A model generated the notes under the pieces. The model saw only the letters and a list, made by a program, of their open reading frames with translations. It ran no database searches and was not told the DNA's origin. DNA of 64,000 bases, from the NCBI GenBank assembly GCA_016202395.1, contig JACQOV010000095.1:1335-65334 (forward strand), read 5' to 3'. The stretch is from Deltaproteobacteria bacterium (lineage in GTDB: Bacteria > JACQOV01). The translations under genes and the position numbers were made by a program. Positions 1,768 to 9,391 of this stretch are shown here, one piece after another. The number at the start of each line of letters is the position of its first letter. Position 1 is the first letter of the stretch.

Positions 1768-3018
1768 TTAAGTCCCCACCTTCTTCTCATAAACGAGTAT
1801 AGGAGATTTCTTGCCGTAAACCACCTCTTCGTCCACCACCACCTCTTTAACGTCGCTCCGAGAGGGGATATCGTACATCACATCCAACATGACACTTTCC
1901 AGGATCGCCCGCAAGCCGCGGGCCCCTGATCCCCGCCGAAGGGCCTCCGAAGCAATGCCCACCACAGCCTCCTCCGTGAATTTAAGCTTTACATCCTCAA
2001 AGTCAAGTAGTTTCTGATACTGTTTCATCAAGGCGTTTTTCGGTTTCCTTAAAATGTCGATCAACGCCTGCTCGTCCAACTGATCCAGCGTGGCAATCAT
2101 AGGGAGACGGCCGATAAACTCAGGGATCAGGCCAAACTTGAGCAAATCCTCCGGCTCCACCTGATGGAGAAGCTCGCTTACTTTTTTATCCTTTTTGCTG
2201 TGAATCTCAGCGCCAAAGCCGAGCTGCTTTACTCTCAAACGCTGTTCTATCATTCTATCTAGTCCCTCAAAAGCCCCGCCACAAATAAAAAGAATCCCTG
2301 AAGTATTGACCTGAACAAAATCCTGCTGCGGGTGTTTGCGTCCCCCCTTGGGAGGCACACTGGCCATGGTCCCTTCGATAATCTTAAGGAGAGCCTGCTG
2401 CACCCCCTCTCCCGACACGTCGCGCGTAATAGAGGGGTTCTCAGACTTTCGAGAGATTTTGTCGATCTCATCGATGTAGACAATCCCCCGTTGCGCCTTT
2501 TCAACATCATATTCCGAGTTCTGCAAGAGGTTCAAAATGATGTTCTCCACATCCTCACCGACATATCCCGCCTCGGTCAAACTGGTCGCATCCGCAATCG
2601 TAAACGGAACATCCAGAATTCGGGCCAACGTCTGAGCCAATAACGTTTTCCCAGATCCTGTGGGGCCAATCAGCAAGATGTTGCTTTTTTGGAGCTCGAC
2701 ATCATCCAAATGCCCTTTCGAATCGATCCTTTTATAATGGTTATGAACAGCAACGGAGAGAATCTTCTTGGCTCTTTCCTGCCCAATCACATACTGGTCC
2801 AAGACTCTTTTAATCTCCGCTGGTCTTGGGATCTTTTTCTTGGCGTTAGAAAATTCTTCTCGCTCGTACTCCTCGGCGATAATGTCATTGCAAAGCTCAA
2901 TGCACTCATCGCAGATATAAACCGTGGGCCCCGCAATAAGCTTCCTCACCTCCCTTTGACTCTTCCCGCAAAAGGAGCAGTTGAGCTGTCCGTTGTCCTC
3001 TCGACGCTTTGTGATCAA
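1768..3018 (-). CDS. clpX: ATP-dependent Clp protease ATP-binding subunit ClpX
   Basis: 416 aa. N-terminal zinc-binding C4 motif (CSFCGKS...CDEC), Walker A GPTGSGKT, and the ClpX IGF-loop region GFGA. Confidence 0.95.
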
Positions 3019-3019
3019 G

Positions 3020-3634
3020 TTAACCTCCGACGACCTTCTTCGGTTTCTCTACTTCACGATGCTCCACCACCTGATCTACAATCCCATATTTCATCGCCTC
3101 GCCACCGGTCATATAGAAATCGCGATCAGAATCTTTCATGATCTTATCCAAAGTCTGCCCCGTGTGCTCGCAGAGAATCCGATTCAACTCCTCCTTCATC
3201 CGCAAAATCTCTCGAGCTTGGATATCGATATCGGTGGCCTGCCCATGAAAACCGCCACTCGGTTGATGGATCAAAATCCGGGCATGCGGCAACGCAAATC
3301 GTTTTCCCCGCGCCCCTGCCGCCAACAGCAATGCCCCCATGCTCGCGGCAAGCCCCATGCACAAGGTCGAAACATCCGGTTTCACATACTGCATGGTGTC
3401 ATAAATCGCCAACCCCGCCGTCACGATCCCGCCGGGGGAGTTAATGTAGAGGTGAATATCTTTGTCGGGATCCTCCGACTCCAAAAAGAGTATCTGAGCA
3501 ATCACCAAATTAGCAACGTCATCATTAATGGGGGAGCCTATAAAAACAATCCGATCTTTTAACAGGCGCGAATAGATGTCGTAGGCGCGCTCTCCTCGGT
3601 GAGTTTGTTCGACGACCATGGGAATCAGATTCAT
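3020..3634 (-). CDS. clpP: ATP-dependent Clp protease proteolytic subunit ClpP
   Basis: 204 aa. Ser-His-Asp triad context ([11 protein letters not shown]). Sits directly upstream of clpX. Confidence 0.95.
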
Positions 3635-6387: not shown

Positions 6388-7029
6388 TTAGTCCGCTTGC
6401 GAAGCAATTTTCATAGCTTCTAATTCTTTACGGTCACGCTCGTTACAAATTTCTGCATAAAATTCAGCTCGCTTTTCTGCATACTTCTTCTTATCTACAA
6501 AATCTAATTTGGATTTAGACTTTAGCAGTAAGATGGACGAGTATTGGCGCAACAAGAGTACATCCAACCAAAGCAGGATAAAAGATAAGAACAAAGCAAC
6601 AATAATGATTGGGCAGATACTATTTGCAACTAAATACGTTTGTGCAATATTATATAATGGATAAGAAGAAAACAGTAAAGAAAGGAGAACCACAATAATT
6701 AAATGAGCTGATTCAAGAAGACTATCCACATAATCACACCAAATATAATTTTGGATGGGATCCTTCTCAATGCGAGCAATTTTATACAAATTGTCCTCAT
6801 CTATGCTTCTTAATAGCCATAAGAGAATTCTAAACACAAAAAATAATAAAATTAATTCTACTACAAATAAAGCAATCGTCCCCCAAAGCCATGCTAAGAG
6901 ATATATCGGCTCGAAGAAATCATCCTTATCTTCATGCCAATAAAGCACCCAAGAAATGGATACAAAAAGGCCTCCAATAAAACTATATACTTCAGAACGT
7001 TTGAGTGAATTTAAAGGTAGTAAGGTCAT
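6388..7029 (-). CDS. hypothetical polytopic membrane protein with a charged C-terminal tail, in an AT-rich patch
   Basis: 213-aa ORF. Several hydrophobic segments and a strongly AT-biased codon composition relative to neighbours. No recognisable motif. Confidence 0.5.
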   Translation of the reverse strand: MTLLPLNSLKRSEVYSFIGGLFVSISWVLYWHEDKDDFFEPIYLLAWLWGTIALFVVELILLFFVFRILLWLLRSIDEDNLYKIARIEKDPIQNYIWCDYVDSLLESAHLIIVVLLSLLFSSYPLYNIAQTYLVANSICPIIIVALFLSFILLWLDVLLLRQYSSILLLKSKSKLDFVDKKKYAEKRAEFYAEICNERDRKELEAMKIASQAD

Positions 7030-7032
7030 GTT

Positions 7033-7097
7033 CTAAATTAAAAATTTGGCGCGCCCGGGAGGATTCGAACCTCCGACCCTCTGTTTAGCTTACTATT
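7033..7097 (-). repeat. Partial duplicate of the tRNA-Arg(UCU) 3' exon (with CCA) plus the last ~15 nt of its group I intron; an att-like direct repeat
   Basis: ggcgcgcccgggaggattcgaacctccgaccctctgtttagcttactattcc matches 9389-9445 (gtgcgcccgggaggattcgaacctccgaccctctgcttagcttactactcc) with 2-3 mismatches. The 5' half of the tRNA is absent. Confidence 0.8.
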
Positions 7098-7485
7098 CCT
7101 TAACAGAAAAACCTAGTTTAGCGGCTATCTTTTTTTGAGGAACGTCCAAAGTTAGAAAAAGCAGATCTGAGGACCGAGGGGACAAATAAAGGGCACATGC
7201 AAGATGCCACGCATCGGCACCCCGCAAATAACCCTGCTTTAATACTGCGCTGATCTCTGGATTCAAAGGACGATCTGGCAAAACCCACCGAACTGCATCC
7301 AGAGACGCGCTTGCGAATTGAATGTCGATGGCTTCTCGAACAAAAACGGATCGTAACTCAGCCTCCAGCAAATTGGAAGAGAAAACGGCATCGAGCTTTT
7401 GCAGCGACCGCCTCATCGCTTTTCCACCCCGCTCATTAAAGAGAATCGCCACAATAACAGAGGTATCGATGTAGGCGATTTTCAT
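7093..7485 (-). CDS. vapC: PIN-domain toxin (VapC family)
   Basis: 130 aa. MKIAYIDTSVIVA start with the conserved acidic PIN residues. Directly downstream of, and abutting, an antitoxin gene. Confidence 0.8.
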   Translation of the reverse strand: MKIAYIDTSVIVAILFNERGGKAMRRSLQKLDAVFSSNLLEAELRSVFVREAIDIQFASASLDAVRWVLPDRPLNPEISAVLKQGYLRGADAWHLACALYLSPRSSDLLFLTLDVPQKKIAAKLGFSVKE

Positions 7486-7755
7486 TTAGTCCCTGGATTG
7501 GAGAAATCGTCGCAGAGCCCCAGGCCGCTTGGCCATCGGTCGAATCTCTCCTGGACGAGCTGCAGAAGTCGTAATAATTCCGGAAAGTTCTAACTCACCC
7601 AATCGTTTAACGATGCCGTTGTGGGAAGTTAAAGGAACCACCTTGGCTATATCGTGCCCACGTTCTGTAATGATGACGAAGCGATGCTTCTTGACTAGCC
7701 GGATTACCTCGCTCAACCTGCTCTTGGCCTGGTAAATAGAATATCTTAAAGGCAT
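7486..7755 (-). CDS. Phd/YefM-type antitoxin
   Basis: 89 aa. The N-terminus (YSIYQAKSRLSEVIRLV..HRFVIITERGHDIAKVVPL) resembles the YefM/Phd fold. Its stop abuts the vapC start. Confidence 0.7.
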   Translation of the reverse strand: MPLRYSIYQAKSRLSEVIRLVKKHRFVIITERGHDIAKVVPLTSHNGIVKRLGELELSGIITTSAARPGEIRPMAKRPGALRRFLQSRD

Positions 7756-7881
7756 AAAGCAAGTATACTTAATCTGGTCAACTTGGTCAAGTCAAAATTG
7801 GCGCTCCCGACTGGACGCTTTTAGAACCGCGTGTGCTGAAATTACACTTACAGCCTGAAAATTTTGCATAGGCACTCCATT

Positions 7882-8883
7882 TTAAGTGCTTTGGGCCCTG
7901 ATTGCTTCAAAACCATTATTCAGCCGGTTTAAGAGAAACGGCTTCATGTTCTGAATTGCCTTTAACGGATCAATGCAATCAGCCTTTTCTATTTTTGAGA
8001 TATAAGGGCCGCTTCTTAACGATAATCTGATTATCGGTTCGTAATATTGACCAGTTTGAGGATTTACTGTGGCCAATTGCTCTATTTTGGCTAGTGCCGT
8101 ATGCCGTTTTGTCAGAATAACTTTATAGAAAACTAATGAAAATAGGCCAACCAAGATAACCAAATTACTGCTATGAGGATCTATACTACAGAACAATGTA
8201 TGGATTCCGAATGGAATTGGTCCAAACGCATTAATGATCGTTCGATCTTGCACAATGCTTACAATTGGGTAGTTGGGAAATTCTCCTGCTTTAATAAAAT
8301 TGCGAATAGCATCATATTCATTACCTTGTACTACGCCAGGACTACGTTGTTTGATCCACCACTCAAATGCGATTTTTGCAACTGCCCTCATGCAGAATGG
8401 ATTGTAAAAAATTGCGAAGTCGAAATGAAGATAAAAGGCCACGTCACTGATATCAGAAGACTGCATGTCTTCCCATGTAGTATTCGGATACTTTTCAGAA
8501 TAACTTTTCCTAGCCTCTTCAAGTTGATCAATAGGTCCTATAAAGGCAATTTTCTTTTTCTTACCATCAGAAGATATCGCTGTTTTATAGGAGAAAAGTC
8601 GTTGTTTAAGATCCTGTGGATTACGAACCTTTATCCGTTGTTTCACATCGCCAAAGTCAGCTTCTAACTCTAGCGCAGGGCGCTTGCCACGTTTCCCAGT
8701 AAGCTGAAGAAAGTTGGTAATAGGTGCGAGAGCCTTAATGATGACCTGTTCCACTTTCCCAAAATCATTGTTGCAAGATCGACCAACTGCACCTAACAGT
8801 GTTGGCCCCGTTCCTAATCCTTCGGGAATAATATGAGACTCGGAATCAGTTTCCTGGTTTTGACAATAAACACATTTAATCAT
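7882..8883 (-). CDS. Uncharacterised protein with an N-terminal HNH-like nuclease motif (HNH_5-like architecture)
   Basis: 333 aa. Begins MIKCVYCQNQETDSESHIIPEGLG...SCNNDFG (C-x2-C ... H ... C-N-N). The rest is uncharacterised. AT-rich codon usage. Confidence 0.55.
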   Translation of the reverse strand: MIKCVYCQNQETDSESHIIPEGLGTGPTLLGAVGRSCNNDFGKVEQVIIKALAPITNFLQLTGKRGKRPALELEADFGDVKQRIKVRNPQDLKQRLFSYKTAISSDGKKKKIAFIGPIDQLEEARKSYSEKYPNTTWEDMQSSDISDVAFYLHFDFAIFYNPFCMRAVAKIAFEWWIKQRSPGVVQGNEYDAIRNFIKAGEFPNYPIVSIVQDRTIINAFGPIPFGIHTLFCSIDPHSSNLVILVGLFSLVFYKVILTKRHTALAKIEQLATVNPQTGQYYEPIIRLSLRSGPYISKIEKADCIDPLKAIQNMKPFLLNRLNNGFEAIRAQST

Positions 8884-8894
8884 TGCTCAAGTCC

Positions 8895-9257
8895 TTAGTC
8901 CGGCTCCCTTTTCAGGCTTTGAATCAATTTTGTAAGCATCTGGCAAACAGCCTGAAGATCGTCGCGTAACTCTGTTTTCTGAATCTCAACAATCAATCCC
9001 AATTCAAAACCAAGCTCAATCAGCGGCACACATTCGAAGGCTGATCCGCGAGAAATAAAATAAAAATTAGCTTTGTCTTTGGCATGCCAACGTCCGGAGC
9101 CTTCGGCAAGATTAAGCGTAATGCTGGTAGCTGCCCTATTAAGTTGGTCGCACCAACTGTATTGGCCTTTGACTTCCTTTGTAATTGTTAAAATCTTTTT
9201 AGAAAAGCTGAGAGCTCTTTTATAAACGTCCAGATTTTCAAATGCGAATTGACTCAT
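8895..9257 (-). CDS. four-helix-bundle protein of the 23S rRNA intervening-sequence protein family
   Basis: Family-typical motifs FAFENLDVYKRALSF, NLAEGSGR and FISRGSAFE. The long ORF reaches 9383, but the family-typical start is the internal Met (MSQFAFENL) at about 9257. Confidence 0.7.
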   Translation of the reverse strand: MSQFAFENLDVYKRALSFSKKILTITKEVKGQYSWCDQLNRAATSITLNLAEGSGRWHAKDKANFYFISRGSAFECVPLIELGFELGLIVEIQKTELRDDLQAVCQMLTKLIQSLKREPD

Positions 9258-9391
9258 AACGTTTTCTCTTCCCGAAGAACGGATTACGAACCACGTGAAC
9301 GAAAATTTGCGGCATTTAGAACCGAGTAAAGACTTGTAATTCGTTGACGTTTTTCGTTTTTCGGGAAAAATTCGCTGCCGCAAATTTTTGG

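Follow-up and report, generated by a model that had tools for sequence, protein, structure and literature searches.

Proteins of the HNH_5 family (Pfam PF14279) carry a His-Me finger module that has been solved in relatives of ~110 aa, among them Gmet_0936 (PDB 4H9D), a zinc ribbon of the form CxxC ... H ... CxxC-N in a beta-beta-alpha layout whose zinc ligands have been described (PMC3765158). PtuB of the Septu system, the partner of the PtuA ATPase, is of the HNH_5 type, and PF14279 has been used to annotate the HNH partners of AAA15/21 ATPases (PMC11464382). McrA-type Type IV HNH enzymes and END nucleases are each encoded by a single gene without a methyltransferase and join one nuclease module to a larger non-catalytic part, and for the END nucleases a modular nuclease-plus-sensor model has been set out (PMC12191111). 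Type II restriction enzymes have an adjacent gene for a cognate methyltransferase, and free-standing homing endonucleases reside in phages, introns or inteins at recurrent target sites.

We analyzed a gene for a 333-residue protein of the HNH_5 family within a 64,000-nucleotide stretch of DNA (the window, meaning the whole stretch), the features of which are collected in Table 1. The reading frame given in a preliminary description of this DNA is intact from its ATG to the stop codon, a Shine-Dalgarno-like AAGGA can be read 8 nt ahead of the ATG, and the product is identical to the NCBI entry 'MAG: hypothetical protein HY538_07770 [Deltaproteobacteria bacterium]'. Against the relatives in loci L026 and L003, dN/dS was 0.10-0.13 overall and 0.085-0.117 for the HNH part alone, as low as elsewhere in the protein, and the open reading frame is thus real, functional and under purifying selection. 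As an explanation of the whole locus we favor, with a rough probability of 0.45, a stand-alone and horizontally mobile nuclease of a two-part family, whose most likely role would be in genetic conflict.

Table 1. Features of the HNH gene, its product and the surrounding islet, in window coordinates
Feature	Position	Strand	Details
333-aa HNH_5-family protein gene	7882..8883	-	ATG 8883-8881; stop codon 7882-7884 counted in
HNH (His-Me finger) zinc-ribbon module, residues 1-58	8710..8883	-	Pfam HNH_5, model elements, column frequencies
Variable beta-rich middle region, residues 59-150	8434..8709	-	Skipped by distant relatives; lowest pLDDT blocks
Conserved family-specific core, residues 151-275	8059..8433	-	Helix with R166 and K170; sheet with H228 and Y253
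Linker and C-terminal helices (300-332), residues 276-333	7885..8058	-	AF2 secondary structure
Four-helix-bundle protein gene (PF05635 / TIGR02436)	8895..9257	-	Pfam 3.1e-24; TIGR02436 1.9e-23
Phd/YefM-type antitoxin gene	7486..7755	-	PF02604 E 1.6e-5, below gathering score; TIGR01552 20.7 bits, cut-off 20.8
PIN-domain (VapC-type) toxin gene	7093..7485	-	PF01850 PIN E 1.2e-11, 45.7 bits against cut-off 23.6
tRNA-Arg(UCU) gene with group I intron	9389..9760	-	Exons 9726-9760 and 9389-9430; intron 9431-9725
Direct repeat copy 1	9382..9441	-	Last 11 nt of group I intron, tRNA-Arg(UCU) 3' exon and 7 nt beyond
Direct repeat copy 2, att-like remnant	7040..7099	-	Repeat family D1

The N-terminal string C-x2-C...H...C-N-N, from which an HNH core had been proposed, can be read as C4-x2-C7 ... 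S16-H17-I-I-P ... C37-N38-N39. When compared with Pfam HNH_5, the protein itself scored only 18.9 bits against a gathering score of 27.5 (E 0.0015, with residues 4-43 aligned to profile positions 1-45 of 56), but 27 of 42 diverse relatives matched the same profile, with a best E value of 5.3e-16, and PF14279 is carried by the closer homologues P0004-P0008, which are 39-50% identical over their full length. Judged by these profile scores, homology of the N-terminus to HNH_5 is secure only at the level of the family, through the relatives. The AF2 model places strands at residues 13-17 and 28-34 and a helix at 35-51, the beta-beta-alpha layout expected of the module, with H17 and N38 present. 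The proposed core therefore holds for the family and for the predicted fold, although not by the protein's own score. In the alignment with 4H9D, C4/C7, H17, C37 and N38 fall on Cys38/Cys41, the His of 'DH', Cys76 and the Asn of 'CNN', respectively, although this profile match is not significant by itself (E 1.1).

The module departs from described HNH_5 proteins at several positions. The second zinc knuckle is incomplete, reading G34-R-S-C37, and owing to G34 the protein lacks the four-ligand zinc set (CxxC ... CxxC); position 34 is Gly in this protein and its two closest relatives and Cys in the other 208 of 211 aligned sequences (99%). In many HNH enzymes the residue directly before the His is an Asp or Glu that binds metal, whereas residue 16 is Ser, not an acidic residue, in this protein and the same two relatives. 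Our protein also has no counterpart of the middle Asn in the H-N-H triad. Column frequencies show C4, C7, C37, N38 and E45 to be 98-100% conserved or conservatively replaced. Position 17 is His in 74% of the family and Asp in 26% of 206 sampled members, the latter mostly in a ~450-aa class, while N38, E45, R166, K170 and H228 stay 92-100% conserved in both groups. As far as the alignment tells, the clade of our protein has lost one zinc-binding Cys (G34) and keeps H17, N38 and E45. Given the missing Cys and acidic residue, and the exchange of His for Asp in 26% of sampled members, the catalytic competence of the protein is uncertain. Moreover, since this exchange occurs while N38, E45, R166, K170 and H228 are invariant, the common function of the family may not be canonical HNH catalysis.

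No motif had been recognized in the remaining ~290 residues, yet this stretch holds the most conserved positions of the family, namely K170 (100%), R166 (99%), H228 (96%) and Y253 (93%; 7% of members have Phe). In proviral loci, distant relatives align with profile positions ~1-70 and 150-275, passing over the middle region, for which one marginal match to PDB 2k5q was found (E 0.04), and residues 276-333 are conserved only among closer relatives. Structure prediction, which had been suggested for this part, gave an AF2 model of the 333-aa protein with pLDDT 89.9 and pTM 0.88, but Foldseek searches of the model against the PDB and BFVD returned no similar fold for the C-terminal ~270 residues, which also have no match in Pfam, PADLOC or NCBIfam. 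Sequence-based searches of the PDB, started from the single sequence, from the whole-protein profile or from that of the C-terminal part, retrieved only 4H9D, in the HNH part, and 2k5q, both too weak to be used. Three motif types were considered for the C-terminal part and rejected: HEPN, as the Rx4-6H pattern is absent; PD-(D/E)xK, as there is no conserved acidic pair with a Lys; and the type IB topoisomerase/tyrosine recombinase order R-K-R-H-Y, as the Asp17 group does not conserve R194, Y253 can be Phe and no fold match was found. The phage family phrog_35254 does match the central conserved region (residues 129-214 on profile positions 199-284, E 2.5e-5) and 15 of the 42 relatives (best E 1.7e-14), but it is uncharacterized and so adds no functional information, and the HNH family is itself rare in phage collections.

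Searching with a profile restricted to the C-terminal part retrieved only HNH_5 proteins of ~330 aa, the matches without a Pfam tag being gene calls truncated at the N-terminus, and no protein with a different N-terminal domain, as effector swapping would produce, was found in this search. Because matches to the full profile span positions 1 to ~265 and the C-terminal profile finds HNH_5 proteins only, the architecture, as seen in these searches, is a fixed one of two parts, in which the C-terminal part occurs only fused to HNH_5. This additional region, with R166, K170 and H228, also sets the protein apart from the solved HNH_5 relatives.

Conservation is strongest outside the HNH module, one reason to ask whether this module is a dead relic, kept as a zinc-finger scaffold, with the real activity (nucleic-acid binding, regulation or an unrecognized enzyme) residing in N38, E45, R166, K170 and H228. 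The replacement of His17 in a quarter of the sampled members, the absence of Cys34 and of an acidic residue 16 and the sub-threshold Pfam score all point the same way, but H17, N38 and E45 are retained in the clade of our protein, His is kept in most of the family, and the dN/dS of the HNH part is no higher than that of the rest of the protein. In addition, neither a DNA-binding fold such as HTH or wHTH nor another enzyme family was detected in the protein with Pfam or Foldseek, and we consider a relic unlikely.

The protein had been called an orphan, which proved wrong: it has 8 close homologues at 39-100% identity, and a profile search at E ≤ 1e-3 recovered 3185 sequences, each representing a cluster formed at 50% identity. 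They fall into two length classes of ~330 and ~450 aa and span Acidobacteriota, Bacillota, Chloroflexota, deltaproteobacterial MAGs and other lineages, and a literature search found no paper characterizing a ~330-aa HNH_5 protein of this kind. The family is thus widespread and uncharacterized. In an all-against-all BLAST of 836 neighbor ORFs from 30 loci, no neighbor recurred except recombinases and an excisionase-like HTH protein (HTH_17). Because no neighbor is conserved across these loci, the gene is stand-alone, as had been supposed. There is likewise no conserved adjacent antitoxin gene of the type II toxin-antitoxin (TA) kind in the 30 loci. Septu shares with our protein the Pfam family of its nuclease module but differs in that no ATPase neighbor is present in the window or at the loci of the relatives; the PADLOC model of PtuB was not matched, and the C-terminal part is different. 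Unlike in Type II restriction-modification, no DNA methyltransferase gene is found among the islet genes, and none recurs near the relatives.

The surroundings of the relatives were mixed, bearing out the proposed mobile setting for some loci and not for others. GmrSD, HTH_17 and AAA_25 are found at one locus and a transposase with a serine recombinase at another; a UPF0175/DUF3368 TA pair lies near one relative, Fic near another, and PIN and HTH near a third; a type IIG enzyme was also seen, and a relative on a Bacillus thuringiensis plasmid has XerS and TnpB nearby. Relatives on proviral contigs are accompanied by TIR and Mrr_cat, by a ResIII helicase, or by DUF2971 and a CAAX protease. Several others sit among plainly housekeeping genes, and in this small sample the known defence genes (GmrSD, type IIG enzyme, TIR, Mrr, ResIII) occur in a few loci, while many others have housekeeping neighbors. 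PADLOC-DB v2.0.0, to which the proposal of an anti-phage nuclease had pointed, held no family matching the protein at E ≤ 1 and no defence model for the 42 diverse relatives, which gave just two single weak matches (E 0.004 and 0.009). NCBIfam returned nothing for the protein; for two relatives it gave a weak match (E 4e-4) to 'HNH nuclease-like protein HlpB', which we set aside, as the papers retrieved for this name deal with HNH domains in general and the match presumably reflects no more than a generic HNH domain.

From these features we infer the following roles for H17, N38, E45 and the C-terminal set. One-metal cleavage of nucleic acid would be the task of the N-terminal zinc-ribbon module, with H17 as the general base and the metal held by N38 and the invariant E45, seven residues on in the same helix. 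The C-terminal ~270 residues would act through R166, K170 and H228 in binding or selecting the substrate, or else in completing or controlling the active site, and the protein would need no dedicated partner. On the sequence evidence, nuclease activity has a somewhat better than even chance of being correct. The most likely role would be in conflict with foreign DNA, as a solitary restriction-type or abortive-infection-type nuclease; such a defence role is plausible and a reasonable inference, to which we give slightly less than even odds.

The closest logic would be that of the modification-dependent (Type IV) enzymes, which our protein resembles in being encoded by a single methyltransferase-free gene, in combining one nuclease module with a larger non-catalytic part, and in its occurrence in variable or mobile DNA, some relatives being found beside GmrSD, Mrr or TIR genes. 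However, the nuclease module is N-terminal in our protein, whereas the HNH of McrA is C-terminal. No modified-base reader (SRA, EVE/PUA, YTH or winged helix) could be recognized by Foldseek in the PDB or BFVD, and, unlike the modular sensors of modification-dependent nucleases (PMC12191111), the C-terminal part did not turn up with any other nuclease type in the search with its own profile. The absence of such a reader fold and of any other effector, the missing PADLOC match and the housekeeping neighborhoods of some relatives are points against defence.

A bolder and rather doubtful extension is that the C-terminal ~270 residues form a new fold, which would license the HNH module on sensing either a feature of the DNA or a cue of infection. 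In that case the family (>3000 clusters at 50% identity) would amount to a widespread anti-phage or anti-plasmid system made of one protein and absent from current defence catalogues, with a non-canonical active site (His or Asp at 17, N38, E45, R166, K170, H228) drawn from both parts. If the protein is a nuclease with a role in defence, a common single-gene system would be added to the catalogue of prokaryotic immunity, along with a compact nuclease bearing a new substrate-recognition domain. The presence of Asp instead of the catalytic His in a quarter of members, set among invariant Asn, Glu, Arg, Lys and His residues, would be an unusual variation of the His-Me finger active site. Should the protein prove inactive or simply selfish, the finding would be an ordinary one.

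The AT-skewed codon usage noted earlier is confirmed by a GC of 0.40 and a GC3 of 0.34 for the HNH gene, compared with a GC3 of 0.48-0.60 for the flanking housekeeping genes. The gene lies in a 2.3-kb islet (7100-9381) together with the four-helix-bundle gene and phd-vapC, the TA pair that had been reported beside it and that is directly downstream. The islet is bracketed by the two copies of direct repeat family D1 (60 nt, 92% identity), which bear out the link to a tRNA gene, as they repeat the 3' exon of tRNA-Arg(UCU). DNA homology to the relatives with 78-84% identity stops within 3-70 nt of the open reading frame. Taken together, the atypical composition, the confinement of homology to the open reading frame and the tRNA-repeat-bracketed islet identify the gene as accessory and horizontally acquired, as first proposed. 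No integrase is encoded in the islet. In this genome the gene is cargo of an integrase-less islet at an intron-containing tRNA-Arg gene, with the four-helix-bundle gene and the phd-vapC addiction module as fellow cargo, and the local lesson is that such genes travel in tiny TA-stabilized islets of this kind.

The upstream, co-directional four-helix-bundle gene, whose stop codon is 11 nt before the HNH start codon, shares the low GC of the HNH gene, and five genes here share the minus strand, of which the repeat-bounded islet contains four. This arrangement, and the TA or PIN genes adjoining the relatives in L027 and L036, could suggest a toxin restrained by a neighbor, either the four-helix-bundle protein as immunity protein or antitoxin or Phd-VapC, in a multi-gene addiction or abortive-infection cassette. 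But the four-helix-bundle gene stands beside no other member of the family and no other neighbor recurs, the relatives at 84% and 78% identity have flanks unrelated to those in the window, and phd-vapC is a self-contained pair of host-like GC. We regard such a cassette as very improbable.

The abrupt ends of DNA homology around the open reading frame, with flanking genes that differ between the closest relatives, bear on a further reading, that of a selfish HNH endonuclease of the homing type. Such a free-standing gene would spread on its own by cutting cognate sites lacking it and being copied in at repair, with no benefit to the host. Two paralogues in locus L007 and a group I intron 500 nt from the HNH gene are also in keeping with homing, and so is a distant member in a provirus that lies, in opposite orientation, between the tail genes for tape-measure and Dit, where free-standing endonucleases are classically found. 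Against this, tblastn of the protein found no match in 50,697 phage records, a ~450-aa relative matched a single record over 46 residues only, and 2.9 million viral contigs held only 5 loci of the family, which is nearly absent from phage genomes. The insertion sites are all different, with no common target gene; no consistent terminal repeats surround the open reading frame; Pfam detected no NUMOD- or IENR-type DNA-binding module; and the gene lies outside the intron, past the tRNA 3' exon. Homing is, on this evidence, quite unlikely.

A 23-nt inverted pair with 74% complementarity (7839-7861 and 8909-8931) was considered as possible transposon-like terminal repeats and judged a product of chance, because the open reading frame has an unrelated pair around it in L026 and no pair in L003, L007, L027 or L004, and the upstream arm lies outside the DNA held in common with L026. 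The Rfam Intron_gpI match in the tRNA gene (9458-9736; 45.1 bits, E 3.4e-9) is below the gathering score of 50, and ARAGORN called tRNA-Arg(tct) on the spliced exons and made no call on the unspliced window. When repeat copy 2 is joined to the 5' exon, a C-A mismatch results in the anticodon stem.

The interpretation best supported by our analysis is that the 333-residue product is a solitary, mobile, accessory protein in which an HNH nuclease module is joined to a family-specific second part. The open reading frame proved to be as the preliminary description gave it in position, start, and length. An AAGGA motif lies 8 nt 5' of the ATG, overlapping the preceding gene's stop codon, and the product is identical to the NCBI entry 'MAG: hypothetical protein HY538_07770 [Deltaproteobacteria bacterium]'. 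Codon comparison with its closest relatives, at loci L026 (84% amino acid identity) and L003 (78%), yielded a dN/dS of 0.10–0.13 overall, indicating a real gene under selection, and of 0.085–0.117 over the first 58 codons. A word-indexed search gave eight homologues, down to 39% identity. When the alignment of these eight was used for an exhaustive profile search, E ≤ 1e-3 was reached by 3185 cluster representatives (clustered at 50% identity), 1e-10 by 431, and 1e-30 by 59, and the label 'orphan' can no longer be maintained. Most matches cover profile positions 1 to about 265. The relatives fall into two length classes (about 330 aa and about 420–470 aa), and the source databases name them only 'HNH endonuclease' or 'hypothetical protein'. 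The family is widespread and uncharacterized, with an unusual active-site pattern and a second domain without a match in the structure libraries searched.

At 18.9 bits (E 0.0015), the protein alone fell short of the 27.5-bit gathering score of Pfam HNH_5 (PF14279), but PF14279 is present in homologues 39–50% identical to it, and 27 of 42 diverse relatives match HNH_5 (best 5.3e-16). The homology to HNH_5 is secure at the family level, despite the sub-threshold score. The protein belongs through HNH_5 to the HNH/His-Me superfamily, whose 2017 classification places HNH_5 in group 1 and as a small separate group 8 without described function (PMC5714182). The AF2 model, built from 72 sequences (pLDDT 89.9, pTM 0.88; five models spanning 85.9–89.9), has strands at 13–17 and 28–34 followed by a helix at 35–51, a beta-beta-alpha arrangement. 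Alignment of the family profile to the solved HNH protein 4H9D (zinc ligands from PMC3765158) put C4/C7, H17, C37, and N38 on the zinc cysteines, the His of 'DH', and 'CNN', at a non-significant E of 1.1. The HNH-like N terminus reported previously is therefore upheld through the relatives, but without its third zinc cysteine: position 34 is Gly in the protein and its two closest relatives and Cys in the remaining 208 of the 211 sequences aligned. Apart from the orphan status, an intact zinc finger is the point at which an otherwise largely correct preliminary description failed.

The residue before H17 is Ser (in the family Ser 52%, Glu 37%), whereas HNH enzymes commonly carry an acidic metal ligand there. 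Nor does the family conserve the middle Asn of the H-N-H triad, and position 17 is Asp instead of His in 53 of 206 sampled members, mostly of the ~450-aa class. Together with G34, these features weaken a simple 'HNH nuclease' label. In the ~450-aa class (members seen in Clostridium and Bacillus; for example proteins P0158, P0113, and P0077) the pattern with Asp for the catalytic His reads 'SESDIIPDALTN ... CxxxHNN', and the fourth zinc ligand C37 is usually His. The exchange of His for Asp in a quarter of the family favors an alternative in which the HNH module is a non-catalytic relic and the protein works through the invariant N/E/R/K/H set, which the His17 and Asp17 groups have in common (N38 98%, E45 99%, R166 99%, K170 100%, and H228 96%). 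If the module is an active nuclease, as we prefer, H17 would act as the general base and N38 and E45 as metal ligands in one-metal His-Me catalysis, and the C-terminal part, with R166, K170, and H228, may bind substrate or complete the active site.

The remaining ~270 aa matched no Pfam, PADLOC, or NCBIfam family in the protein or its relatives. Their sole match is phrog_35254 (function unknown; residues 129–214, E 2.5e-5), which is also matched by 15 of 42 relatives (best 1.7e-14). A C-terminal-only profile recovered 158 proteins, and those among the matches listed were either about 330 aa long with HNH_5 or gene calls starting at an internal Met in the HNH motif, so this part is tied to HNH_5 and is no shuffled sensor module. 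In distant members from proviral contigs, the match covers profile positions of about 1–70 and 150–275 and skips the middle, which limits the conserved core to the HNH module and residues of about 150–275.

Features of the islet and its borders
Feature	Position	Strand	Description
Membrane-protein gene (our reading)	6388-7029	minus	213 aa, hydrophobic; GC 0.34, GC3 0.31
Direct repeat, 60 nt	7040-7099 and 9382-9441		92% identical; brackets exactly the four-helix-bundle gene, HNH gene, phd, and vapC
vapC	7093-7485	minus	co-directional with HNH gene
phd	7486-7755	minus	co-directional with HNH gene
HNH gene	7882-8883	minus	ATG start, 333 aa
Four-helix-bundle protein gene	8895-9257	minus	PF05635 / TIGR02436
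tRNA-Arg(UCU) gene, split by intron	9389-9760	minus	exons 9726-9760 + 9389-9430 joined give canonical tRNA-Arg(UCU)
Group I intron, 295 nt	9431-9725	minus	splits tRNA-Arg(UCU) between anticodon positions 34 and 35

In the window, the stretch from tRNA-Pro to mtgA contains five co-directional genes. The repeat corresponds to a tRNA 3' end and includes the last 11 nt of the group I intron and the whole 3' exon; 5' of copy 1 (9382-9441) lies the tRNA 5' half, with the intron between the two. Rfam Intron_gpI matched 9458-9736 at 45.1 bits (E 3.4e-9), slightly below its gathering cutoff of 50, and ARAGORN did not call the tRNA-Arg(UCU) gene on the unspliced window. Joining the distal copy to the 5' exon gives a C-A mismatch in the anticodon stem. 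A repeat of a tRNA 3' end is what site-specific insertion at such a gene leaves behind, which makes 7100-9381 a 2.3-kb islet; because the repeat spans the intron end and the 3' exon, the inserted element carried a copy of the intron-containing tRNA end. No integrase lies within the 2.3 kb between the copies. The tRNA-linked location and the neighboring toxin-antitoxin (TA) pair, phd-vapC in the same islet, are thus borne out, as is the AT-skewed codon usage. The region is a mosaic in composition: GC3 is 0.34 in the HNH gene, 0.41 in the four-helix-bundle gene, 0.46–0.50 in phd-vapC, and 0.48–0.60 in flanking housekeeping genes.

The four-helix-bundle gene, with its stop 11 nt 5' of the HNH start, has low GC in common with the HNH gene. 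Its family ('23S rRNA intervening sequence protein') includes DGR Avd proteins (PMC10053308), and it is unlinked to the HNH family elsewhere in a neighbor comparison of 30 loci. The membrane-protein gene, just outside the repeat on the tRNA-Pro side, may be a second, older insertion; its product had no significant match in Pfam, PADLOC, or NCBIfam. The 3' end of tRNA-Lys(CTT) (12061-12133), at 12104-12133, recurs 104 nt downstream at 12208-12237 (30 nt, 90% identical) and may be the att-like remnant of a further insertion or excision event.

Between the window and loci L026 and L003, nucleotide homology is confined to the open reading frame (window 8896-7812 and 8887-7879), and the neighbors at these loci are unrelated to those in the window, with Rrf2 and cytochrome c at one and unknown ORFs and a metallophosphatase at the other. 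Across the 30 loci no neighbor recurs save recombinases and an excisionase-like HTH, which argues against a toxin controlled by a neighboring gene. Some neighbors hint at mobile elements or conflict: single loci carry a DDE transposase with a large serine recombinase; HTH_17, AAA_25, and GmrSD; a UPF0175/DUF3368 TA pair; Fic; or PIN and HTH, and XerS and TnpB lie near a member on a B. thuringiensis plasmid. The top Pfam families among 139 neighbor ORFs are phage integrase (3) and resolvase (2), with housekeeping enzymes also present. Just 5' of the homologue at L026 lies an inverted repeat (67-158; 32 nt, 94% complementary) built of CAAC/CATCAAC-type short repeats. One metagenomic contig, L007, contains two divergent paralogues (209-1222, plus, 337 aa; 2052-3215, minus, 386 aa) 830 nt apart, with an ORF of unknown function between.

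Among known families, Septu PtuB was ruled out by the lack of an ATPase partner and of a model match, and a Type II enzyme by the lack of a methyltransferase. Because searches of the protein revealed no reader domain, it cannot be filed under Type IV. It resembles in logic the single-gene, nuclease-plus-sensor modification-dependent restriction enzymes, but these undergo domain shuffling (PMC12191111), of which the HNH family has none. A role in conflict, as a methyltransferase-independent restriction-type or abortive-infection-type nuclease, fits the solitary status, mobility, TA/recombinase company, and a few defense-rich neighborhoods; set against this are the absence of the family from PADLOC v2.0.0 and the heterogeneous contexts of its relatives, and the anti-phage or abortive-infection role proposed from the sequence is plausible but only partly supported.

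Viruses seldom carry the family. Among 50,697 phage records the protein had no match, and a ~450-aa relative aligned to a single phage record through no more than 46 residues; 2.9 million viral contigs contained only five family loci. This rarity in phages and the want of a common target site count against a selfish homing-type endonuclease, which mobility at single-gene size would otherwise suit. Neighbors at the viral-contig loci are TIR and Mrr_cat, a ResIII helicase, or DUF2971 with a CAAX protease, and at one locus the family gene lies between tape-measure and Dit tail genes. The TIR-domain protein and the Mrr_cat restriction endonuclease are encoded on either side of a distant member on a proviral contig (L032, 6656-10113), in what looks like a defense hotspot.
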